Of a DNA stretch of 43,009 nucleotides, positions 1,676-43,009 are shown one piece after another. The DNA is from Candidatus Nanosyncoccaceae bacterium. GTDB lineage: Bacteria; Patescibacteriota; Saccharimonadia; Saccharimonadales; Saccharimonadaceae. A model generated the notes under the pieces. That model made no database searches. It saw only the letters and a list, made by a program, of their open reading frames with translations, and was not told the origin of the DNA. The stretch is from contig JAZQSO010000031.1 in NCBI GenBank assembly GCA_045630145.1, forward strand, positions 1-43,009, given 5' to 3'. The position numbers and the translations under genes are program-made. The first letter of the stretch is position 1. Each line of letters begins with the position of its first letter.

Positions 1676-2587
1676 CTAGTCTCCTAAATCCAAACTTGCT
1701 TGCATAGTTTCTGGGGTTTTCGTGAGCACTTCTTCCGTCAAAACAATTTTCGGATTCACGACTGCCATTTCTACCATGTTCGCATTGAGCGACAAATCCT
1801 TCATTTCGATCATCACTGGGCAATGGTCCGAGCCCATCACTTCGTCACAAATCTCCGCCTCGACCAACTTGCTCTTCAAGCTATCAGATAACAAGAAATA
1901 ATCAATTCTCCACCCAACATTATTCTGCCTAGCGCCACCACGGTAAGACCACCAAGAATACTTCACTTTCTCTGGATTCTTAAAGCGGAAGCTATCTATA
2001 AAACCAGCTGACAGATAGTTCGTCATACCTTGGCGTTCTTCTTTTGTAAAGCCCGCATGCTGAACATTCTGCTTTGGACGCGCTAGGTCGATTTCCTCAT
2101 GCGCTACATTCATATCGCCGCACAAAATCACCGGCTTCGTCTTCTCGAGTTCTTTCATATAGCTCAAGAGTGCTGGATCCCAAACTGTCTCACGGAATTT
2201 TAAGCGCTCCAAAGAATCCTTTGCATTCGGCACATAAGCATCCACAAGATAAAAATCATCAAATTCTGCTGTTACGAGGCGCCCTTCTGTGCGTACATCA
2301 CCGAATTGGTCTACCCATTCAAACTCTTCGTTCTGCGTATCAAACATGCCAAAGCGCACGCTGAGTGGTCGCACCTTTGTAAAAATAGCCGTGCCAGAGT
2401 AACCCGCACGATCGGCCGAGTTCCAAATCTCTTCATATTCTTCAAAATCAACTTCTGCTTGCCCCTGCTTCGCCTTGGTTTCTTGTAGACAAATAATATC
2501 TGGATCATAATTTGCCAGAAATTCCTGAAACGCACCTTTTTTGAGCACGGCACGCAAGCCATTTACATTCCATGAAAAGATTCTCAT
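1676..2587 (-). CDS. xth: Exodeoxyribonuclease III / AP endonuclease
   Basis: MRIFSWNVNGLRA...ICLQETKA...GSDHCPV are ExoIII (EEP) signatures. I prefer ATG 2587 over the track start at 2605. TATAAT (2599-2594) lies 6 nt upstream. The protein has a ~40-aa C-terminal extension. Confidence 0.9.
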   Translation of the reverse strand: MRIFSWNVNGLRAVLKKGAFQEFLANYDPDIICLQETKAKQGQAEVDFEEYEEIWNSADRAGYSGTAIFTKVRPLSVRFGMFDTQNEEFEWVDQFGDVRTEGRLVTAEFDDFYLVDAYVPNAKDSLERLKFRETVWDPALLSYMKELEKTKPVILCGDMNVAHEEIDLARPKQNVQHAGFTKEERQGMTNYLSAGFIDSFRFKNPEKVKYSWWSYRGGARQNNVGWRIDYFLLSDSLKSKLVEAEICDEVMGSDHCPVMIEMKDLSLNANMVEMAVVNPKIVLTEEVLTKTPETMQASLDLGD

Positions 2588-2593
2588 ATCTCT

Positions 2594-2599
2594 ATTATA
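2594..2599 (-). promoter_or_regulatory. -10 box TATAAT 6 nt upstream of the xth ATG (leaderless configuration)
   Basis: The minus strand reads TATAAT-agagat-ATG(2587). No SD. It sits directly after the terminator at 2606-2632. Confidence 0.55.
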
Positions 2600-2605
2600 T
2601 AGCAT

Positions 2606-2632
2606 AAAAAATGCGGCCCCTTAAGGGACCGC
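2606..2632 (-). terminator. Intrinsic terminator after the 2640 gene
   Basis: Stem GCGGTCCC-ttaa-GGGGCCGC (1 mismatch) followed by AUUUUUU on the minus strand. Confidence 0.7.
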
Positions 2633-2639
2633 AATTAAA

Positions 2640-3242
2640 TCATTTCAGCCTGTATTCCAATCTTAGCCCGTTATACTTGCAGAAAATCTCCACAATTGCC
2701 AGCACGGTCGAAGCATAAGCCTCGTTATCGGAACCAGCAGCATAAACGAAGAAGCCCGCCTCGAGTACCGAACGGTGACCCTGCGCAGAATACAACCTAG
2801 CATAAACTGCCAATGTCGGCCAACCACACTTGCTATCGCGCATAAAATCGCCCAGTTCACGGCGCTCCGGCTTCTTACATTCCTTCGCGCAAGTCTGACA
2901 CTCATTGTAGCGCTGGTAGACTGCCCGCATTGGTTCCGACATCGTAGCATTTTCGTTCAGGAGCGACTTATAAATCGCTTCATTCTGACGTTTTTCTTGT
3001 TCGTCCTGATGAAAAATGCTCTTACGGAACTCACTCTGGATGTCTTTGTCATAAAAGCACAACAATGGCATCGCACGGAATTCAATCCAGCCGGCTTTCA
3101 GCCCACCATCAAACTTCTTAGCAAAGTCTTCGGTTTGTGGCACCAAGCCAAAACGTGCTTCGTGTAAATCACGACTATCGTCCACGCAAGCTTTCGTAAC
3201 GATTTCCAACACTCGCACGAGGCTATTCAGGTCCATTTTCAT
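2640..3242 (-). CDS. Hypothetical cytoplasmic protein (200 aa, Cys-rich centre)
   Basis: Long ORF with a GAGAGG SD upstream and a hairpin/U-run terminator at 2606-2632. No recognisable motif. Confidence 0.6.
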   Translation of the reverse strand: MKMDLNSLVRVLEIVTKACVDDSRDLHEARFGLVPQTEDFAKKFDGGLKAGWIEFRAMPLLCFYDKDIQSEFRKSIFHQDEQEKRQNEAIYKSLLNENATMSEPMRAVYQRYNECQTCAKECKKPERRELGDFMRDSKCGWPTLAVYARLYSAQGHRSVLEAGFFVYAAGSDNEAYASTVLAIVEIFCKYNGLRLEYRLK

Positions 3243-3451
3243 TTCAGATCAACCTCTCTTCAAAGAAATTTCGGAACGGAATAAAAGCTTAAATGTATTC
3301 TTAAAGAACCGCCCACGATGTGGTATATTTTCGCATAATCTAGCCTTTTTGCAAGCGTAAGCGCTTAACTAAACAGGTGAAATATGTTAATATTCAATCC
3401 ATTGCAAAACAAGCACCTTACTTTTTCCGAGATTCAGAAAGGAGGCTCTCA

Positions 3452-3793
3452 ATGAGACCTAGAGTCCATCATTTCCGCAAATCCGATGCCAAAATTCTCC
3501 GCACTTTCTCCATCCAAAGCGAGACGTGTGGTCATATCGCAGGCGTTTCGAATATTATTCGAGACTTCATCGATGGCATTAAAGCCGGCAAGCCACCCAA
3601 GGTACGCTATTACCTGTATCAGGAATACCCCTGCAGCCTGCACGGTAAAGCCGAAAACTTTGACATCACTCAGGACGCGCCCGATGGTAACTTCGGTACC
3701 ATTCGCACAATCCAGACCGCTCAAGACGAAGAAAACAAATTCTATCTTCGCTTCGAAACAGAAAAAGACTTCTATTTAATCCCTATCCGTTAA
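3452..3793 (+). CDS. Hypothetical protein (113 aa)
   Basis: AAGGAGG at 3439-3445 lies 6 nt before ATG 3452. The track GTG start at 3377 has no SD. The bidirectional terminator at 3797-3834 follows. Confidence 0.6.
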   Translation: MRPRVHHFRKSDAKILRTFSIQSETCGHIAGVSNIIRDFIDGIKAGKPPKVRYYLYQEYPCSLHGKAENFDITQDAPDGNFGTIRTIQTAQDEENKFYLRFETEKDFYLIPIR

Positions 3794-3796
3794 TCT

Positions 3797-3834
3797 CGAA
3801 AAAACTCCCGCTTCACGGCGGGAGTTTCTTTTAT
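3797..3834. terminator. Bidirectional terminator between convergent genes
   Basis: 9-bp stem AACTCCCGC/GCGGGAGTT flanked by A6 and T-rich runs. Confidence 0.75.
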
Positions 3835-3866
3835 CGTTTCTTGTCGATACGTACACAATCCTACAA

Positions 3867-4406
3867 TTATTCCTTGGGACAAATTTTCAGACCAACTTTT
3901 GCAAGCATATATTCGCGACGCCACCAAGTAGCATCAGACTCGAGCTGCTTAATACATTCTTCGATAGCGTTTGTTGCCTGCTTAAGATCGTCTGCGATCG
4001 CTCTGAGCTGTTTCATATTAGAAGCCTGCTCGAGCGAGAAATCCTCCTGATCAAAGATATATTCGTCAGTCAGACACTCGTTACGCATAGCTTCAGTCTC
4101 AGCAAAGCATTCATCGATTCGCGCCTGAATATTCTCTAACCGCTGAGCACTTTCTTCATCGCAAGTATCTCTAACGGTTTTGATATATTCCTGCATAACC
4201 TCACGTCCTTTTGCAAGTTCGCCAGCCAGAGGACGGTAGTTGCGCAAAAATTCACGACGAGAATAGTAGTTTGCCAATGCTTCACCCAGATTATCACGCA
4301 TTGCCGTGTCGTCATTATTGGATCCTTTCCAGACCGCATTGCAAATCGCGGTCAAAATCGCTGCCGTTGCAGCCGAAAGAATCGCAACCATTGCTAAATT
4401 TTTCAT
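3867..4406 (-). CDS. Hypothetical N-terminally membrane-anchored or secreted helical protein (179 aa)
   Basis: N-terminal hydrophobic segment MKNLAMVAILSAATAAILTAICNAVW. The rest is charged and helical-looking. Confidence 0.6.
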   Translation of the reverse strand: MKNLAMVAILSAATAAILTAICNAVWKGSNNDDTAMRDNLGEALANYYSRREFLRNYRPLAGELAKGREVMQEYIKTVRDTCDEESAQRLENIQARIDECFAETEAMRNECLTDEYIFDQEDFSLEQASNMKQLRAIADDLKQATNAIEECIKQLESDATWWRREYMLAKVGLKICPKE

Positions 4407-4551: not shown

Positions 4552-4628
4552 ACACAATCAAGACCGGATTATTTTCCGCGCACCTTTAAAACTATCGTTC
4601 TCTACCCACCGGTCAGAAAGGATTTGCT

Positions 4629-5063
4629 ATGAATAAGCTAACCAGTATCGCAATCGCCCTCGCCGGAGTCACGACCGCCGCAGTCATCATTCACTGCGCT
4701 AAACCTCGTATCGAAAAGGACGCTAAGCTTGCCAAAAAGCTCAATGACCTCCGTGACGATTTAGAGCTCGACTGCGATCTCATCTTCTCTACAACCAAGG
4801 AAATTCCCGAAGAAATCATCACTTCCGCCGACCGCTCCTTCAAGGAGATCGTCAACGATGCTGCTGATTTCGCCACATCCGTCTTTAATGTTTATGCCTA
4901 TTTAGACTACGACAGTATCAAGAGTCTGTCCGTCGACGCTAAGCAAGCTTACGTCGAATGCATCAGTTCTATTATTAAGAACGCAGAGAAATATCTCTAT
5001 GCCATCGATGCCGCACGTGACCTCATGAAAGACACTCGCCGTTCAATGGGTATCAAAGGCTAA
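4629..5063 (+). CDS. Hypothetical N-terminally membrane-anchored helical protein (144 aa)
   Basis: N-terminal hydrophobic segment LTSIAIALAGVTTAAVIIH. AAAGGA SD upstream, promoter at 4523-4551, terminator at 5103-5130. Confidence 0.6.
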   Translation: MNKLTSIAIALAGVTTAAVIIHCAKPRIEKDAKLAKKLNDLRDDLELDCDLIFSTTKEIPEEIITSADRSFKEIVNDAADFATSVFNVYAYLDYDSIKSLSVDAKQAYVECISSIIKNAEKYLYAIDAARDLMKDTRRSMGIKG

Positions 5064-5130: not shown

Positions 5131-5146
5131 TGCGATTATTCCCCTG

Positions 5147-5155
5147 TGGTATAAT
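5147..5155 (+). promoter_or_regulatory. Extended -10 TGgTATAAT 6 nt upstream of the rel ATG
   Basis: TGgTATAAT-ataagt-ATG(5162). No SD. Confidence 0.6.
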
Positions 5156-5161
5156 ATAAGT

Positions 5162-6634
5162 ATGAAAACTTCGCCACGAGTCAAAGAGGCGATAGCAGTC
5201 GCCACCAAAGCCCACGAGGGTCAGCTTCGTAAGACTGGCGAACCTTATATTATTCATCCACTCGCCGTCCTTAAAATCCTTCAGGAGTGGAACATGGACG
5301 AGGACACCATTATCGCTGGAGTTCTCCATGATACCGTTGAGGATACAGATTTATCTCTTAAAGAAATCGAGGACACCTTCGGCAAAGATGTCGCCTTCCT
5401 CGTTAATGGCGTCACCAAGCTTGGCAAAGCCCGCTCTGGCATGAAGGATCTCGACGAATATCTCCCAGAGACTGGAGATAACCTTCTCAAGCTCCTCGTT
5501 GCGACTGGTCAGGACGTCCGCGTCCTCATTATTAAGCTTGCCGACCGTCTCCATAATCTCCGTACACTTTCCGCGCTTCCACCAGAAAAACAACAAAAAA
5601 TCGCCCGCGAATCCCTCGAAGTCTTCGCGCCGCTTGCCGATCGTCTTCAGATGGGCCACGTCCGTGTCGAAATCGAAGAAACCAGCTTCCGCTATCTCGA
5701 TCCGCGCCGCTTTGAATTCCTCCAGAATCTCACCAAAGAGCGCCTCAAACAGGCCGATAAAAAGCTCAAGAACGCCCAACACGCCGTCGAGGAAGCCCTC
5801 AAAAAGGAAAAGATTGAATACAAGTGCGATGGCCGCGTAAAGTCCATCTATTCCCTACACAAAAAGCTTGCGAAATACAACCAAGATATCAACCGCATCT
5901 ATGACCTTATCGCGTTGCGTTTTATCGTCAAAGATATCACCACTTGCTACTTAGTCCTCGGCATTATTCATTCGCTCAACCGCCCAATGGATGGCCGCGT
6001 CAAAGATTATATCGCAATGCCAAAGACCAATGGCTATCAATCCTTACACACCACGGTCATTACGCCAGACAAGCAAATTGTTGAATTCCAAATTCGCACT
6101 CAAGAGATGCACGATTATGCCGAGCGCGGTCTTGCTGCTACCTTCTTCTATAACGAGCAGAAGCTCACCTCCGCCTATGCCGAGGGCAAAGTCAGCAAGC
6201 TTCCACCGCATCTTCTCTGGATCAAAGAGCTCCAAGAGACCTCCACAAAGCTCGCGCACGGCGAAAAAGTCGACACCAAAAAACTCCGCCTCAATCTCTT
6301 CGCGGACAAGATTTTCGTTTATACGCCAAAGGGCGACATTATCGATTTGCCAAAAGGCTCCATGCCTCTAGATTTTGCCTATCGCCTTCATAGCGACATT
6401 GGCGCCACTTGTACCGGTGCTATCGTCAACGGCAAGATGGTCAGCCTTAGCACTAAGCTCAAACAAGGCGACATTGTCGAAATTATTACCACTAAGAACC
6501 AAAAACCAAACCCAGGTTGGCTAGACAAAGTCTTTAGCAAACACGCCCGCACGAAGCTCCTCAGCCAGCTCAATACACTCTTCGCTAAAAAAGAAGAAAC
6601 TGGTGGCAACTTCCGCAAACCAAGCAAACATTAG
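5162..6634 (+). CDS. rel: Bifunctional (p)ppGpp synthetase/hydrolase, RelA/SpoT homolog, short form ending after the TGS domain
   Basis: HD hydrolase motifs (EPYIIHPLAV, GVLHDTVEDT), a synthetase motif (GYQSLHTTV) and a TGS domain (IFVYTPKGDIIDLPKGSMPLDFAY). I prefer the start at MKTSPRVKEA (ATG 5162) over the track start at 5099. Confidence 0.9.
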   Translation: MKTSPRVKEAIAVATKAHEGQLRKTGEPYIIHPLAVLKILQEWNMDEDTIIAGVLHDTVEDTDLSLKEIEDTFGKDVAFLVNGVTKLGKARSGMKDLDEYLPETGDNLLKLLVATGQDVRVLIIKLADRLHNLRTLSALPPEKQQKIARESLEVFAPLADRLQMGHVRVEIEETSFRYLDPRRFEFLQNLTKERLKQADKKLKNAQHAVEEALKKEKIEYKCDGRVKSIYSLHKKLAKYNQDINRIYDLIALRFIVKDITTCYLVLGIIHSLNRPMDGRVKDYIAMPKTNGYQSLHTTVITPDKQIVEFQIRTQEMHDYAERGLAATFFYNEQKLTSAYAEGKVSKLPPHLLWIKELQETSTKLAHGEKVDTKKLRLNLFADKIFVYTPKGDIIDLPKGSMPLDFAYRLHSDIGATCTGAIVNGKMVSLSTKLKQGDIVEIITTKNQKPNPGWLDKVFSKHARTKLLSQLNTLFAKKEETGGNFRKPSKH

Positions 6635-8297: not shown

Positions 8298-8327
8298 ACC
8301 ACCCGGAACAATACCGGGTGGTTTTTT
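8298..8327 (+). terminator. Intrinsic terminator
   Basis: ACCACCCGG-7 nt-CCGGGTGGT followed by T6. Confidence 0.85.
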
Positions 8328-8332
8328 ACATC

Positions 8333-8365
8333 AAAAAGCCCCGCGATATTCGCGAGGCTTTTTAT
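8333..8365 (-). terminator. Intrinsic terminator of the adhesin gene (usable in both directions)
   Basis: 11-bp stem AAAGCCCCGCG/CGCGAGGCTTT (1 mismatch) flanked by A and T runs. Confidence 0.75.
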
Positions 8366-38002: not shown

Positions 38003-39616
38003 CTAATCAACCTTCTCCAAGCTAACAATAATCCCTTCCAACTTAGTCCTTCCGCCCCACTCATTCTTCGTCAAAGTAAACTGCACCAAGACATCAGAAC
38101 CAGATTTCACATTCAGCCACTCGCTCGGCACATAGAAACCCATCAATCTAAACTCCAGGCTATTCTTATCTTTCAAAGTCAGCGCCAAATGTTCCTCCTT
38201 CAAAATCCGAACACCTTTTATAGTAGCCGTAATCTCAAAAATCGGCTCCTGATTCCCCTCGCCAAACGGTTCCATCTGTTGAATTTCGTCACATAGCTCT
38301 AGGCTCAACTTCGAGAAATCCCCCAAAATCACATCGCTCGCCTGACGCAAATATTGCTCCTGACCAGTCAAGCCCAATCCCTCGTAATAATCATTAATCA
38401 AGGTCTTAAAGCTATCTAAATCCGTCGCATTCAAACTCAAGCCACAAGCCGCCGCGTGACCACCACCAGATAATAACAAGCCCTCTGGCATATTCTGAAG
38501 CGCCTCCGCGAGCGAGAAATCACCAAAACTACGTCCGCTACCTTTCAGAACGCCATCTTCAAGCTCCGCAAAGACAATCGCCGGCTTCTTATAGATCTCC
38601 ACCAAACGACCAGCCACAATCCCTACAATACCTTCGTGCCACTTACCGTGCGCCACAATCACAGCATCATCTTCACTAACCTGTAGATTCGCCTCTTTAA
38701 CCGCCTCGTCCTGAGCTTTACGACGCTCAGAATTCAATTCATCAAGCTCTTCAGCAAGCGTATAAGCCTCGGAACGCTTATTCGTCATCATTAAGTTAAG
38801 CGCCAAGTCCGCACTCTTCATACGCCCTGCCGCATTAATCCTTGGCCCCAGTTGAAAGCCAATCGAGCGACCATTCATCTCATCCAACTTCACGCCCGCA
38901 CGCTGCGCCAACTCTTTAATACCTCTACGGCGCGTCTTTGGGAACACCTTGAGTCCATAATAGGTAAAAATCCGATTCTCATCCCTTAGAACCATCGAGT
39001 CGCAAATCGTACCAAGCGTCACCAAATCTAGCAACCACTTCTCTTGGCCATCACATTTACCCCCATTCTTCTGCGCATTCAGAGCTCGCGCCAAAGTAAA
39101 AGCCACACCAACACCCGCCATCCTCAGGCCATACTTCTCGCCTGGCAAGTGCGAATTAATCACCGCTACCGCCGCCTCTGGCTTATTCGGGATCTCATGA
39201 TGGTCCGTCACGATCGTATCAATGCCACGCTCCTTCAATTTCGCGATTGTCTCGCCCGAACCGCTACCATTATCAACCGTGATCACTAAATTTACCCCAC
39301 GCGACACAATCTCTTCAATCGCACTGTCTTTCATGCCGTAACCATCTATAAAACGATTTGGCAAAATCACTTCCACATGCTCACAACCAAAGTCTTTCAA
39401 GGCCGTAAACAACACCGTGCTAGACGTCACGCCATCTGCATCATAATCGCCATAAATTAAAATGTGTTCAGCCTCGTCCCGTGCCTGCTCGATGCGAGCG
39501 ACTGCCTTGTTCATGCCAAGCATCAAAAATGGATCAAACAAATCTTCGTAGCGCGGGTTCAAAAAACTCTCGTCTAGCCCTCGGTCGGCTAGTATCTGCG
39601 AAAATATCTCAGTCAT
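38003..39616 (-). CDS. recJ: Single-stranded-DNA-specific exonuclease RecJ
   Basis: DHH motifs (IYGDYDADGVTS, ITVDNG, IVTDHHE) and the DHHA1 motif GGGHAAACG. Confidence 0.9.
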   Translation of the reverse strand: MTEIFSQILADRGLDESFLNPRYEDLFDPFLMLGMNKAVARIEQARDEAEHILIYGDYDADGVTSSTVLFTALKDFGCEHVEVILPNRFIDGYGMKDSAIEEIVSRGVNLVITVDNGSGSGETIAKLKERGIDTIVTDHHEIPNKPEAAVAVINSHLPGEKYGLRMAGVGVAFTLARALNAQKNGGKCDGQEKWLLDLVTLGTICDSMVLRDENRIFTYYGLKVFPKTRRRGIKELAQRAGVKLDEMNGRSIGFQLGPRINAAGRMKSADLALNLMMTNKRSEAYTLAEELDELNSERRKAQDEAVKEANLQVSEDDAVIVAHGKWHEGIVGIVAGRLVEIYKKPAIVFAELEDGVLKGSGRSFGDFSLAEALQNMPEGLLLSGGGHAAACGLSLNATDLDSFKTLINDYYEGLGLTGQEQYLRQASDVILGDFSKLSLELCDEIQQMEPFGEGNQEPIFEITATIKGVRILKEEHLALTLKDKNSLEFRLMGFYVPSEWLNVKSGSDVLVQFTLTKNEWGGRTKLEGIIVSLEKVD

Positions 39617-39619
39617 AAA

Positions 39620-39916
39620 TTAATTAATAATTTTATTGCCCGGCTTCGTGGACTGCTGCTGACTCTTGATCACAATGCTTTGCAGCTCCTTCAAAATCGG
39701 AAATTGCTTATTCGTCTGATAAATGTTTGTATTACCCTTTTTCGCCACCGTTAAAAACCCACCTTTAGCAAGATGCTTCAACTCGCGCTGAATATTTCCC
39801 GGGTCTTCTTTAATTAACTTCGCCAAACCACGCACATGTGTTTTGAAATCGGGATATTTCGCAAACACAACAATAATCTTCCGACGGACGCGGCTCGTTA
39901 CGAAAATGTCTAACAT
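39620..39916 (-). CDS. Small winged-helix transcriptional regulator (ArsR/MarR-like fold)
   Basis: 98 aa. VRGLAKLIKEDPGNIQRELKHLAKGGFLTVAKKGN looks like an HTH plus wing. AAGGAGG SD. Located upstream of recJ. Confidence 0.55.
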   Translation of the reverse strand: MLDIFVTSRVRRKIIVVFAKYPDFKTHVRGLAKLIKEDPGNIQRELKHLAKGGFLTVAKKGNTNIYQTNKQFPILKELQSIVIKSQQQSTKPGNKIIN

Positions 39917-40004
39917 TTACCTCCTTAACTGATTATTATTTTAGCAAAATCCCAGTATTTTCTACAACGTTTTTCTTTAACAATTTTCTATTTTCTTCCC
40001 CATG

Positions 40005-40033
40005 TTGACATTTCATAACGATTATGTTATAAT
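40005..40033 (+). promoter_or_regulatory. Consensus sigma70-type promoter TTGACA-17 nt-TATAAT
   Basis: TTGACA at 40005-40010, a 17-nt spacer, TATAAT at 40028-40033. About 95-nt leader to ATG 40136. Confidence 0.8.
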
Positions 40034-40135
40034 ACACCGGCTAGTTTGGAAAGCAATCCGAATCCGCACCTTAGCAATGCTTTCATTTTCCCGTCGCTTT
40101 AAAAGGCGACTGTCTTCATAGAAAGGAGAGATAGT

Positions 40136-40825
40136 ATGACCACTATCCGTGTAAAATCCGTATCCGCCGCTCGCTCTAAGGAGGTAGGTAATGTGAAGGT
40201 TACAGTAAGAAAGGTTTCCGCCGAAATCAGCCCCGTCGAACTGCTCAAGGCATTCTTCGAACGCTGTTCGCGACAGCTCGCCAACGTGCAGCCCTACTAC
40301 GCTCACGTTGCCGGCATCCTAGCCAAGCAACTCGAAGAAGTCGACAGCTTTAGCATCTCGGGCATCAAGAATGATCTTCCCGCAAACGCCAATGCGGTAT
40401 TCTTCTGCGAAGCAATCGCACCTGACTACCCAGGACAATATTTCAAGGAAGACATTCTTCTCCTTTGCAAAAGCCCTGACGCTTATACCGGACTGCACTG
40501 GGGATCCTTCCAAGAAGAAGGTCCAAGACACACCGAACTCATGGCTCGCGAAGCCTGCTCCGCAGCAATCTACGCACTCAAAGACAAAACAATTACCTCG
40601 CTCAGCAAAGCCGCAGCCGTCATGATTCGCAAGTTCTGCAAACAGGACTTCAATTGCAAAGAGACATTCGAGTATGCATATATTTGCTATCACGGCAGTC
40701 ACCACAGAAGCTACGCAGACATCTCCTACGAGGAGCTTGTCAGAAGATGCGACCCGCTCGCATCTAGTGGCCCGCGTATCTGCCGTGAAGACCTCGGCGA
40801 ATATATCAGCGACCTCTTCAAATAA
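40136..40825 (+). CDS. Orphan protein 1 of the tandem triplet (229 aa, cytoplasmic, Cys-rich)
   Basis: Perfect TTGACA-17-TATAAT promoter at 40005-40033, AGGAG at 40124-40128, ATG 40136, hairpins at 40852-40872 and 40898-40925. No motif recognised. Confidence 0.65.
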   Translation: MTTIRVKSVSAARSKEVGNVKVTVRKVSAEISPVELLKAFFERCSRQLANVQPYYAHVAGILAKQLEEVDSFSISGIKNDLPANANAVFFCEAIAPDYPGQYFKEDILLLCKSPDAYTGLHWGSFQEEGPRHTELMAREACSAAIYALKDKTITSLSKAAAVMIRKFCKQDFNCKETFEYAYICYHGSHHRSYADISYEELVRRCDPLASSGPRICREDLGEYISDLFK

Positions 40826-40897
40826 AGCATTGCAAAAAACAGTTAGAAAATCCTCTACATCACAAGTAGAGGCTAACCAAAGGCAATGCCTTATCTA

Positions 40898-40925
40898 GCC
40901 CCGCATCACAAGCGGGACTTTTTCT
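40898..40925 (+). terminator. Intrinsic terminator after orphan gene 1
   Basis: G(C)CCCGC-atcacaa-GCGGG(A)C followed by TTTTT. Confidence 0.75.
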
Positions 40926-40934
40926 TGCTCATGC

Positions 40935-40963
40935 TTGCCCTTTTACCTCTGTTATGCCATAAT
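40935..40963 (+). promoter_or_regulatory. Promoter TTGCCC-17 nt-CATAAT
   Basis: Coordinates 40935-40940 and 40958-40963. The leader contains a perfect 8-bp hairpin TCGAATAT-ggtgg-ATATTCGA (40972-40992). Confidence 0.65.
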
Positions 40964-41047
40964 ATCTTCGTTCGAATATGGTGGATATTCGAGGTTCTTC
41001 GACATCCGCCATCCGTCTTCTACCCCGTCCGCAAAGGAGGTTTTATT

Positions 41048-41782
41048 ATGGGAAGGGCTATTAAGAACGATTACGAACTTGCTCACCAGCTCACGTCTTT
41101 CTTTAGACGTCTGAGCTCCGCCTGCGATCATTCGTCAGTAACAGGCAATTACATTGCCAGCGTTGCGAAAACCTTAAGCACACAGGAAGACGCCTTCTTT
41201 GCGTCAACTCCCGTCCGCTTCTATGGTCAACTCGAAACGCCCTGCACGAATAATCTCCCTTACTACATCGATGCAGACCTGATCACTAAGCGTGTTCTCG
41301 ATTTCGTCGATGACGGAAGAGAAATTGCCGTTATGCGCAATAATGCCGCTTCCAACTTCAAGCCCAGCATCTACGTCGATTTCATCCTTGATCTCGACTG
41401 CGACTGGCCAGCATCCGTCTATAGCTCCGCATACGAAGAAGGTGTTCTCTGGATTGGCAAACGCCACCCTATAAGAATCGCTCAGGAATCCCTTAAAAAT
41501 GCCGCACGCTACGATTCGGACAAGCTGTTCGATAAAGCACTCTTCGCTATCGAAAACTACATCACCATCGATACAAGCATTCTCGAAGTCTACAAACGCG
41601 TTGCGCAATGCTACGAAGATAACTGGGGCGAAAGCGGCATTGATGCCCCCTGCGAGCTCTCTGTTCTCGCTAAACTGTTCGACCCCTATGCCAAAAAGGC
41701 CGACCCGGAGCTCGACTATCGCTATCGCGAGAAGCAGATCACGCACGAGTTGATTACACATCTTGCCAATCGCTATATTTAA
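41048..41782 (+). CDS. Orphan protein 2 of the tandem triplet (244 aa)
   Basis: AAGGAGG at 41034-41040 lies 7 nt before ATG 41048. The track start at 40886 would run through the promoter and terminator. Promoter at 40935-40963, terminator at 41796-41827. Confidence 0.65.
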   Translation: MGRAIKNDYELAHQLTSFFRRLSSACDHSSVTGNYIASVAKTLSTQEDAFFASTPVRFYGQLETPCTNNLPYYIDADLITKRVLDFVDDGREIAVMRNNAASNFKPSIYVDFILDLDCDWPASVYSSAYEEGVLWIGKRHPIRIAQESLKNAARYDSDKLFDKALFAIENYITIDTSILEVYKRVAQCYEDNWGESGIDAPCELSVLAKLFDPYAKKADPELDYRYREKQITHELITHLANRYI

Positions 41783-41795
41783 TGGCGGCAAAACA

Positions 41796-41827
41796 CCCCC
41801 GCATCTTATCGTGCGGGGGATTTTCTT
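41796..41827 (+). terminator. Intrinsic terminator after orphan gene 2
   Basis: CCCCCGCA-8 nt-TGCGGGGG followed by ATTTTCTT. Confidence 0.8.
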
Positions 41828-41854
41828 GACTTTTTATCTTGTTTATGCTATAAT
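41826..41854 (+). promoter_or_regulatory. Promoter TTGACT-17 nt-(TGc)TATAAT
   Basis: Coordinates 41826-41831 and 41849-41854, with an extended -10 TG at 41846-41847. Confidence 0.8.
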
Positions 41855-41946
41855 AATCTTACAGTTTATTTTTGCAACTTGTTCTTTTCCATCTCAGTTA
41901 TGCAACGATAGACGAGTTTTATTACTTCCGAAAGGAAAGATGTCCT

Positions 41947-42627
41947 ATGTTAAAGTACGATCTTGCCTACCGCGAATCCTTCACTAGCCACAAGACAACC
42001 TTCGTCCAGCTCAGAAAGAGACTCGACTTCCTCGCCACCAGGGCTTCCAAGTCCATGGAGCTGAGAAGCCTGTTTCGCGCTATGGCTCAGTATCTGGACG
42101 AGGATGAAAGAAGCTTCAACGAGTACGATGTGAACCCCCTCCACGAGCCTATCTTTATTAGTTATGAAAGTCTCGGTTACCGCCCCTTCGTTATCAGGGA
42201 CTGCGATACCAAGACGATCATTACTAAGGCTCAGGAGATCTTTCACGACGTCCTCCCGAATCTTCTTGCCGACAAGTATTCCAACGGCAGCACACGCGAC
42301 TACTACGAGACCATCGCCACTGCAATGTATCACCTGTTCTCCAAGAACAGTAAGGCTTACAACGTCAATCTGAACTTCAACGAAGAATGGAATGACGGAA
42401 GAAGCTATGATTATTACGGCAAGATGGCAACGCTCAGTGAATTTTTCGAGGCTTTCCGCGATGAATACCTGAAGGTAGACAAAAAGCTTGAGCAGCGCAA
42501 TGCAAGAATCGAGAGAAGCAACCGCTACTCCGATGACAGCACTTTCGACACTAACCCCGTTGAATCCGCTCTTGGCTCCCTCGGCCTGAACAGACGCGAT
42601 GCGCACTTCGTTGACTCCAATGACTGA
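41947..42627 (+). CDS. Orphan protein 3 of the tandem triplet (226 aa)
   Basis: AAAGGAAAG at 41931-41939 precedes ATG 41947. Promoter at 41826-41854, terminator at 42634-42662. Confidence 0.65.
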   Translation: MLKYDLAYRESFTSHKTTFVQLRKRLDFLATRASKSMELRSLFRAMAQYLDEDERSFNEYDVNPLHEPIFISYESLGYRPFVIRDCDTKTIITKAQEIFHDVLPNLLADKYSNGSTRDYYETIATAMYHLFSKNSKAYNVNLNFNEEWNDGRSYDYYGKMATLSEFFEAFRDEYLKVDKKLEQRNARIERSNRYSDDSTFDTNPVESALGSLGLNRRDAHFVDSND

Positions 42628-42633
42628 GATCAG

Positions 42634-42662
42634 GCCCCCGCACCACAAGCGGGGGCTTTTTC
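42634..42662 (+). terminator. Intrinsic terminator after orphan gene 3
   Basis: GCCCCCGC-accacaa-GCGGGGGC followed by TTTTT. Confidence 0.85.
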
Positions 42663-42675
42663 TTGCTCTTTGCGC

Positions 42676-42681
42676 TACAAT
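42676..42681 (+). promoter_or_regulatory. -10 box TACAAT 6 nt upstream of the priA ATG
   Basis: TACAAT-atctct-ATG(42688). No SD and no properly spaced -35. Confidence 0.5.
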
Positions 42682-42687
42682 ATCTCT

Positions 42688-43009
42688 ATGAATTACTATC
42701 TGATAGCGCCAGCTCTAACTTTTCATAACTCAGATAGTCTACTGACCTATGAATCCGAGCAAAAGCTTAATGTCGGACAAATCGTCACAATTCCCCTTGG
42801 CAAGAAAACCGCCATCGGTATCGTAATGCAAAGTTGTCCTAAGCCAGAATTCGCGACGAAGCCAATTGTAAATGTTTTATACAATGAAACTCTCCCCTTA
42901 AAGCTCACCAAAGCCCTCAGTTGGCTTGCCGATTATTATCGGGCACCTATGTCTAGTGTTATTCAGGCTGCCTTGCCACGCGGTATCACCAAGAAACGCC
43001 GCGACAAAG
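42688..43009 (+). CDS. priA: Primosomal protein N' (PriA helicase), N-terminal fragment running off the window
   Basis: My own translation is MNYYLIAPALTFHNSDSLLTYESEQKLNVGQIVTIPLGKKTAIGIVM...LSWLADYYRAPMSSVIQAALP. The V.IPLG.K...G.V and W.A.YY..P......ALP patterns are typical of PriA. This ORF is not in the supplied track because no stop codon lies within the window. Confidence 0.75.
   Translation, partial: MNYYLIAPALTFHNSDSLLTYESEQKLNVGQIVTIPLGKKTAIGIVMQSCPKPEFATKPIVNVLYNETLPLKLTKALSWLADYYRAPMSSVIQAALPRGITKKRRDK

Follow-up and report, generated by a model that had tools for sequence, protein, structure and literature searches.

A putative cassette slot between recJ and priA in Nanosyncoccaceae-like Saccharibacteria, with one constant orphan gene and a predicted structured leader RNA

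Saccharibacteria and other bacteria of the candidate phyla radiation (CPR) have very small genomes with a high proportion of uncharacterized genes, and to our knowledge little is known of how such genomes acquire and regulate strain-specific functions. Integron cassette arrays and the rAID-type arrays of orphan immunity genes are built of small, promoter-equipped orphan genes, placed in tandem on the same strand with repeated intergenic modules. Here we analyze a stretch of 43,009 nucleotides (nt) from a Candidatus Nanosyncoccaceae bacterium (contig JAZQSO010000031.1, hereafter the window), in which three tandem genes that we call P1, P2 and P3 occupy the interval bounded by the divergent recJ operon (- strand) and the priA-def-fmt operon (+ strand). 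We term this interval the slot. The reading that we favor, with a probability of about 65%, is that it is a cassette slot of ruminant-gut Nanosyncoccaceae-like Saccharibacteria, of which P2 is the constant occupant, P1 an old paralog of P2 and P3 a member of another family.

Like the integron and rAID-type arrays, the slot varies between strains in the copy number and order of its genes. Unlike them it lacks IntI or any other tyrosine recombinase as well as attI and attC sites (an attC model was not run), and the gene tables contain no recombinase in or beside the slot in any locus. The borders of its units are terminator hairpins and T-runs fused to -35 boxes; the repeated modules are ordinary terminators and sigma-70 promoters, and the genes have no match to known immunity or defense families. 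The slot can also be compared with flexible genomic islands and hot spots, with which it shares fixed flanks, strain-variable orphan genes and allele exchange by recombination. Yet at 0.9-3.5 kb it is very small, it is free of tRNA genes, integrases, transposases and phage remnants, it never loses P2, and its cassettes have a uniform style of promoter and terminator with breakpoints inside these modules. No relevant tRNA gene or tandem repeat was found at the locus, and in the literature we found nothing specific to it.

How constant is the content of the slot? The loci and contigs compared with the window are labeled L001 to L029. The related contigs belong to metagenome-assembled genomes of Candidatus Saccharibacteria, several with a Nanosyncoccaceae label, and the sample names assign several of them to the gut of sheep and other ruminants. 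The gene order nrdR-ftsZ-ftsA-map-adk-rpsU-recJ-wHTH (- strand; wHTH, winged helix-turn-helix), slot, priA-def-fmt (+ strand) is conserved. Within this framework the slot holds between 1 and 5 genes, in keeping with the variable copy number that a first-pass annotation of the same DNA had suggested looking for. P2 is present in all 18 slot-bearing contigs examined, down to 26% identity, and every P2 homologue on a contig reaching beyond the gene lies in the slot on the priA strand. It is the sole slot gene in L012, L013 and L015-L017, and also in L019-L021, where it is only 26% identical. P1 is found in the window, L001 and L008; L028 has a paralog that is P1-like or intermediate, and L029 has part of one. 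P3 occurs in the window, L006 and L007 and is absent from L008 and L001. The other occupants are unrelated orphans of 195/225, 135, 152/126 and 190 amino acids (aa). Overall the genes between the fixed flanks stem from at least seven families, and P1, P3 and at least five further, unrelated orphan families are gained and lost there. A metagenome scan with the P2-family alignment added four short loci. The 126-aa (4577-4957) and 152-aa (5139-5597) orphans of L003 form a tandem pair; they are 57% identical, and each has its own consensus promoter.

The substitution pattern points to exchange of the P3 cassette. In comparison with L001 the flanking genes have a nonsynonymous divergence (dN) of 0.04-0.08, with a ratio to the synonymous divergence (dN/dS) of 0.01-0.06, against dN 0.19 (dN/dS 0.27) for P1 and dN 0.35 (dN/dS 0.12) for P2. 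The dN of P2 is 4-5 times that of the flanks at a dN/dS of 0.12-0.16. In the comparison with L006, dS is 0.026 for P2 and 0.07 for the start of priA, but 1.39 for P3, the product of which is 67% identical; because this value stands between near-identical flanks, the P3 cassette has been replaced by a distant allele through recombination and did not diverge in place. Several junctions can be located. In L008 block alignment shows an extra 225-aa cassette inserted exactly at the -10 element of the P1 promoter, and the sequence at 40022-40033 of the window is repeated on either side of the insert. Aligned with L008, the P3 cassette is delimited to 41829-42650 (+), comprising promoter, leader, gene and terminator. 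It is flanked at 41814-41828 and 42651-42665 by the repeat GGGGGnTTTT(T)CTTG, made up of the 3' half of a terminator joined to the beginning of a -35 box. The tandem duplication of L003 is flanked by a 45-nt repeated terminator module of this kind, whereas L002 has only one copy. In these comparisons homology between genomes breaks inside the shared promoter and terminator modules, and because the breakpoints fall within them we infer that the standardized modules double as homology for cassette exchange. Cassettes would be gained, lost, duplicated and exchanged via recombination between the repeated regulatory modules or between the conserved flanking genes, presumably with no dedicated recombinase involved.

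Each cassette is a self-contained unit of promoter, leader, open reading frame (ORF) and terminator. The first-pass annotation had placed a promoter before each of the three genes, and a consensus scan found all three at the same positions, starting at 40005, 40935 and 41826. The P1 promoter (40005-40033, +) is TTGACA-17-TATAAT, matching the consensus at 12 of 12 positions and extended by TG; it is the sole 12/12 match in the whole window, the best elsewhere reaching 10-11/12. The P2 promoter (40935-40963, +) is TTGCCC-17-CATAAT, a 9/12 match with a TATGC extension, and that of P3 (41826-41854, +) is a TG-extended 11/12 match. The genes themselves, all on the + strand, lie at 40136-40825 (P1, 229 aa), 41048-41782 (P2, 244 aa) and 41947-42627 (P3, 226 aa), each preceded by a leader of about 85-100 nt. 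The leader of P1 (40034-40135, +) has two hairpins and a Shine-Dalgarno (SD) sequence AGGAG at 40124; its folding z-score is -1.46, and its sequence is kept in L001 and L008 upstream of their P1 orthologues. All of the SD sites proposed in the first pass were confirmed in place. The two leader hairpins that it named are correctly located as well, except that the TGCTTTC arm of one ends at 40084 and not at 40083. A separate terminator for each gene, likewise proposed, was recovered by a scan for hairpins with T-runs: for P1 at 40900-40923 (+; CCCGCATCACAAGCGGG then a T-run, the hairpin occupying 40900-40916), for P2 at 41796-41819 (+; a two-way hairpin) and for P3 at 42632-42658 (+).

The modules are also alike from cassette to cassette. 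Over 25 nt the terminators of P1 and P3 share 84% identity, and the pattern of the P1 terminator occurs 5 times in the window against an expectation of 0.25. Promoter-like sites number 9 in the 3.4-kb region, compared with 3.8 expected, and elsewhere in the window the number is close to that expected. In the six loci scanned for promoters (the window, L001, L002, L003, L005 and L008) there is one promoter with a 17-nt spacer per cassette in 20 of 20 cassettes, and all 20 conform to TTGnnn-17-[TC]ATAAT. The 14 promoters of accessory cassettes (P1, P3 and other families) have the form TTGAC(A/T)-17-TATAAT and match the consensus at 11-12 of 12 positions. The P2 promoter is weaker in each of the six loci, with the form TTGC(C/G)(C/G)-17-(C/T)ATG(A/C)CATAAT.

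A different account of the locus would deny that these ORFs are genes at all, the real products being those of the long antisense ORFs, or the region being non-coding. Antisense ORFs on the - strand do overlap all three genes (40319-40705, 128 aa; 41204-41791, 195 aa; 41950-42648, 232 aa). Yet substitutions between orthologues are most frequent at the third and least frequent at the second codon position of the + frame in P1, P2 and P3, and dN/dS across the three lies at 0.12-0.27, well under 1. The third-position excess and these ratios show that P1, P2 and P3 are real + strand genes, and for the same reasons we rejected the antisense ORFs as genes and regard them as shadow ORFs. Their codons lie directly opposite those of the + frame, a common source of such shadows, and every SD site, promoter and terminator is found on the + strand. 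We give this alternative practically no credence. An antisense ORF of 381 aa in L014 (5335-6480, -) lies in the corresponding frame and is likewise judged non-coding.

What is encoded by the cassettes? The description of the three in the first pass as fast-diverging genes, individually wired and assignable to no named family, agrees with their raised dN and with empty database scans. P1-P3 have no relative in Pfam, NCBIfam, PHROG or PADLOC scans, the matches to PHROGs being only at E 0.06-0.23. No relatives were found among the IMG/VR viral contigs, nor by tblastn of P1-P3 against 50,697 phage records, plasmids not being searched. The other cassette proteins of the related loci have no Pfam, NCBIfam or PADLOC assignment of note. 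No signal peptide or transmembrane segment had been noticed in P1-P3, and this is borne out by a maximum Kyte-Doolittle value of 0.92 in windows of 19 aa.

The variable cassettes would be strain-level accessory genes, most plausibly engaged in conflict with phages, hosts or competitors. A stronger version would make the slot an island of defense or immunity. Its cassettes would then be anti-phage or orphan immunity genes, similar to the known arrays of orphan immunity genes in which intergenic promoters are conserved, and the adjoining 98-aa wHTH protein would be the regulator. Strain-variable content, small cytoplasmic acidic orphan proteins with raised dN, promoters at or near consensus, repeated intergenic modules and exchanged P3 alleles are all compatible with such an island, and residues 7-85 of the wHTH protein match the PADLOC candidate PDC-M05A with E 7e-18. 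That match, however, is confined to the N-terminal, generic DNA-binding half of PDC-M05A, and the wHTH gene is part of the conserved recJ operon. P1, P2 and P3 have no match in PADLOC-DB 2.0 at E<=1, and the other cassette proteins, those of related loci, tested in PADLOC at E<=0.1, gave one weak match, to Cas3d (E 0.005), for the 126-aa protein of L003. There is no toxin, nuclease, ATPase or recombinase nearby. Moreover P2, in contrast to accessory defense genes, is found universally as a single copy and evolves under purifying selection. We therefore consider a dedicated defense island unlikely, and return to the cassette slot with P2 as its constant member.

The relationship between the three proteins divides them into two groups. 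P1 and P2 are homologous despite an identity of about 20%. BLASTP gives a colinear alignment of 185 aa at E 0.005, and in profile-profile comparison P1 matches the close P2 alignment with 77% probability (E 2e-5) and the P2 family with its distant members included with 96.5% probability (hhalign, E 9e-10, 196 columns). The hidden Markov model (HMM) of the P2 family matches P1 at 3e-8, and the P1 HMM matches the most distant P2 members at 2e-7 to 3e-4. The columns common to both are FF-x-R near the N-terminus, G-x-R-H where a helix begins, a D within the long helix, C-Y and (F/C)-D-P; P1 thus belongs to the P2 family, whose profile it matches over the full length, with the G-x-R-H, D and (F/C)DP columns included. 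The P1 profile scores the deep P2 lineages above the neighboring P2, and because of these better scores P1 is an old paralog and not a recent local copy. It is strongly diverged and present in some strains only, with homologues 90% and 71% identical at a dN/dS of 0.27.

P3 stands apart. The first pass had regarded all three genes as divergent paralogs of one locally amplified family, which is correct for the kinship of P1 and P2 and does not hold for P3 or for a recent amplification. BLASTP of P3 against P1 and P2 gives E>=0.23, hhalign gives E 0.24-0.52 with a probability below 1%, and no HMM match is found in either direction. The profile E of P3 against the P2 family is 0.24-0.44, outside membership. 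The segments of P2 and P3, and of P1 and P3, that had been matched by eye are not significant at these values. That P3 is nevertheless the most diverged copy of one amplified family could be argued from the P1-P2 pair, which are true homologues at an identity of only some 20%, from the best local match of P2 and P3, which is the very segment noticed in the first pass (YITIDTSILEVY versus YETIATAMYHLF), from the two helices with which P3 is predicted to open, like P2, and from tandem P2-family pairs elsewhere (L028, plus a partial ORF in L029). We regard this as distinctly unlikely given the profile comparisons. The invariant G-x-R-H and FDP motifs are missing from P3, the slot of relatives accepts unrelated orphans, and the low-confidence model of P3 is all-helical whereas that of P2 is alpha/beta. 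The P3 model, made with AlphaFold2 (AF2) from an alignment of three sequences, has a mean predicted local distance difference test score (pLDDT) of 41 and is unusable. Two clusters of P3 homologues were found, 99% and 64% identical, at a dN/dS of 0.16. On sequence comparison P3 is best placed as an orphan of a family other than that of P1 and P2, and it appears to be exchangeable.

P2 itself is a soluble, mildly acidic protein (isoelectric point, pI, 5.1) some 240 aa long, and its family is confined to Saccharibacteria. Its homologues form 13 clusters at 98-46% identity, and a profile search of 1.84 billion representative proteins returned 9 matches; since there are so few, the family has a narrow distribution. 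Its invariant residues are G-x-R-(H) and D, and a (F/C)-D-P motif is nearly invariant. The AF2 model from 14 sequences has pLDDT 78.5 and a predicted template-modeling (TM) score of 0.83. It is an alpha/beta fold of four short strands and nine helices, one of 34 residues, with a disordered loop at 92-112. Foldseek found no convincing structural neighbor of the model in the PDB (best E 0.36, TM 0.18) or in BFVD (best E 0.43, TM about 0.2). Sequence-profile searches of the PDB with the broad P2-family alignment and one further alignment gave nothing at E<=10, and Pfam nothing relevant for 19 family members. It might be speculated that the G-x-R-(H) at the start of a helix and the invariant Asp form a ligand-binding or catalytic site. 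Databases contain P2 forms of 264-267 aa with 23 additional N-terminal residues, starting from the ATGG of the leader hairpin described below. These were rejected as an annotation artifact because the leader contains insertions and deletions of lengths not divisible by three, and because in the window this ATG is in a different frame from P2.

The position of P2 invites a further explanation. Primosome accessory proteins are lineage-specific and fast-evolving, and P2 resembles proteins such as DnaD/DnaB, PriB and DnaT in being lineage-restricted, rapidly evolving and close to a restart gene. It might thus be a lineage-specific partner of PriA, replacing PriB/DnaT or the DnaD/DnaB type. All genomes seen, even those with P2 at 26% identity, have it upstream of priA, separated by no more than a few accessory cassettes. 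We find this highly unlikely. P2 and priA are separate transcription units, with a strong terminator after P2 and a -10 box of its own before priA, and the insertion of unrelated accessory cassettes between the two is tolerated. Since synteny extends over the entire ftsZ-to-fmt region, the adjacency is little informative. P2 is acidic and evolves 4-5 times faster than priA, and it has no likeness in sequence or fold to DnaD, DnaB, PriB or DnaT by Pfam (including DnaD/DnaB_2), PDB or Foldseek. The first pass had set its orphan reading against that of single-copy, conserved core genes of known role; P2 is indeed single-copy and conserved in position, but without a known role. It remains best described as the constant gene of the cassette slot.

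The second feature that sets P2 apart is its leader (40964-41047, +). This can be compared with the leaders of ribosomal-protein mRNAs and with the pseudoknot of the phage T4 gene 32 mRNA. As in these there is a conserved hairpin, possibly an H-type pseudoknot, near the 5' end, followed by an unstructured pyrimidine-rich tract and the SD sequence. As in feedback leaders generally, the element is tied to one gene family and is conserved more strongly than the coding sequence. It differs in having no Rfam match and in that P2 is acidic and its regulation putative. In the window nucleotides 40978-40986 pair with 41004-41012, around the core ATGGTGG/CCGCCAT, and all P2 leaders fold into this same hairpin. 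A possible second stem, TTCGAA/TTCGAG, would pair 40971-40976 with 40988-40993. Downstream of the hairpin are a C/U-rich tract and a strong SD, AAAGGAGG, with AAGGAGG at 41034. Over the 84 nt from the -10 box to the start codon the leader is conserved in all lineages, its DNA being 65-77% identical to the window even where the protein is only 26-36% identical.

A covariance model of the leader (R1) finds one match upstream of every P2 for which upstream sequence is available (24 matches), plus a second copy in L028, and none elsewhere in 223 kb. The match in the window is at 40964-41050 (71 bits, E 1.5e-13), and there is none at P1 or P3. A search of Rfam gave no match at E<=1 in 39600-43009. 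The L028 motifs lie at 181-266 and 1120-1202 of one short contig. One is upstream of P0024, a distant family member of 285 aa; the second follows P0024 and is almost the same as the leader of L015-L017. This placement of the two R1 copies implies a tandem pair of P2-family members in L028, both carrying the leader.

Covariation supports the hairpin. When 12 lineages were aligned with MAFFT without fitting to the structure, pairing in the 7-bp core was 97.6%, and two of the pairs showed changes on each side. In the structure-fitted alignment of 23 distinct sequences the 7-bp helix is 98% paired, compared with 34-64% for slid controls. Compensatory changes are found at 3 of the 7 pairs, the variants being GGUGG with CCGCC, CCACC, CUACC or CUGCC, GGAAG with CUUCC, and GGGAG with CUUCC. 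The covariation score of the helix was reached by none of 500 shuffles, and the frequent G-U pairs fit an RNA of the + strand only. The 5' arm of the hairpin lies within the possible second stem (TTCGAx with xTCGAA), which would make the structure an H-type pseudoknot; by eye this stem covaries at one position (A-U, U-A and C-G). The P2 leader is thus, to judge from its sequence, a conserved element of predicted structure that is specific to one gene family. From its conservation and covariation, which are the whole basis of this proposal, the leader with its hairpin, possible pseudoknot, C/U-rich tract and SD may control translation or mRNA stability, most simply through feedback from P2 itself or through a ligand. 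Sequestration of the SD by the pyrimidine tract was considered and found not consistent.

Several points weigh against the interpretation as a whole. No search gave a functional clue for P1, P2 or P3. The promoters and terminators are consensus matches only, and since there are other 11/12 promoters in the window, the likeness of promoters and terminators between cassettes could be a genome-wide convention and not a sign of recombination handles. The folding-energy z-scores of the leaders (-0.4 to -1.5) are unremarkable taken alone. The second stem of the P2 leader, and hence the pseudoknot, is weakly supported at 74% paired, and the covariation count over 23 sequences was made on an alignment fitted to the structure, with many of the sequences related. 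The comparisons amount to about a dozen independent lineages, mostly short metagenomic contigs.

Within these bounds P2 is a core orphan protein whose fold is predicted with confidence but has no match among known folds. Its leader would be a newly recognized gene-specific RNA motif and among the few candidate riboregulators proposed for the phylum. The slot would be a miniature hot spot in which promoter-to-terminator units are inserted, duplicated and exchanged without mobile-element machinery. A more ambitious synthesis, which we offer only tentatively, would combine a new-fold core family (P2 and P1), a dedicated riboregulatory leader and a recombinase-free cassette system. On this proposal P2 and P1 could have a core, lifestyle-specific function in gut Nanosyncoccaceae, the terminator and promoter modules could serve both as expression signals and as recombination handles, and naturally transformable, minimal-genome episymbionts could use them to shuffle orphan genes at a safe site between essential operons. 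If recombination at the junctions is indeed how cassettes move, the slot would offer a natural safe site with strong promoters for the engineering of cultivated relatives.

The borders of the slot are themselves well conserved. The left border is formed by the gene for the 98-aa winged-helix protein (39620-39916, -), the first of the recJ operon. This protein is 98-100% identical among relatives, compared with 89-96% for RecJ, and has weak ArsR/HTH matches. At the right border (42676-42690, +) a TACAAT -10 box is followed after 6 nt by the ATG of priA (42688). The same TACAAT-N6-ATG, with no SD, precedes priA in L001, L002, L005, L006, L008, L012, L016 and L019, and in L013 the arrangement is TATAAT-N7-ATG instead. 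A clear -35 box was not found at the canonical distance from the -10 box in the window. The start of priA is probably leaderless. In L006 priA is called as two ORFs of 415 and 186 aa (2041-3975), which suggests a frameshift, a pseudogene or an assembly error.

Base composition gives no sign of foreign origin. The + strand is C-rich throughout, its GC skew being below zero in each 1-kb bin of the window. At third codon positions (GC3) most - strand genes have a skew of about +0.2 to +0.5, and + strand genes one of about -0.3 to -0.6. Because of this asymmetry codon usage depends on the strand, and + strand genes are atypical in relative synonymous codon usage (RSCU). A foreign origin of P1-P3 was rejected on this ground, as their GC3 skew and their low RSCU correlation with the - strand majority are common to other + strand genes.

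Two further observations concern places outside the slot. A further orphan gene of about 190 aa, beginning MRRDY(D/G)NFT, lies between priA and def in L005 (4797-5372) and L018 (3216-3779), and the priA-def junction may be a second small variable slot. At 8298-8363 of the window G+C-rich hairpins with T-runs on both strands form a bidirectional terminator between convergent genes, and this cluster has the CCCG...CGGG style of the cassette terminators.

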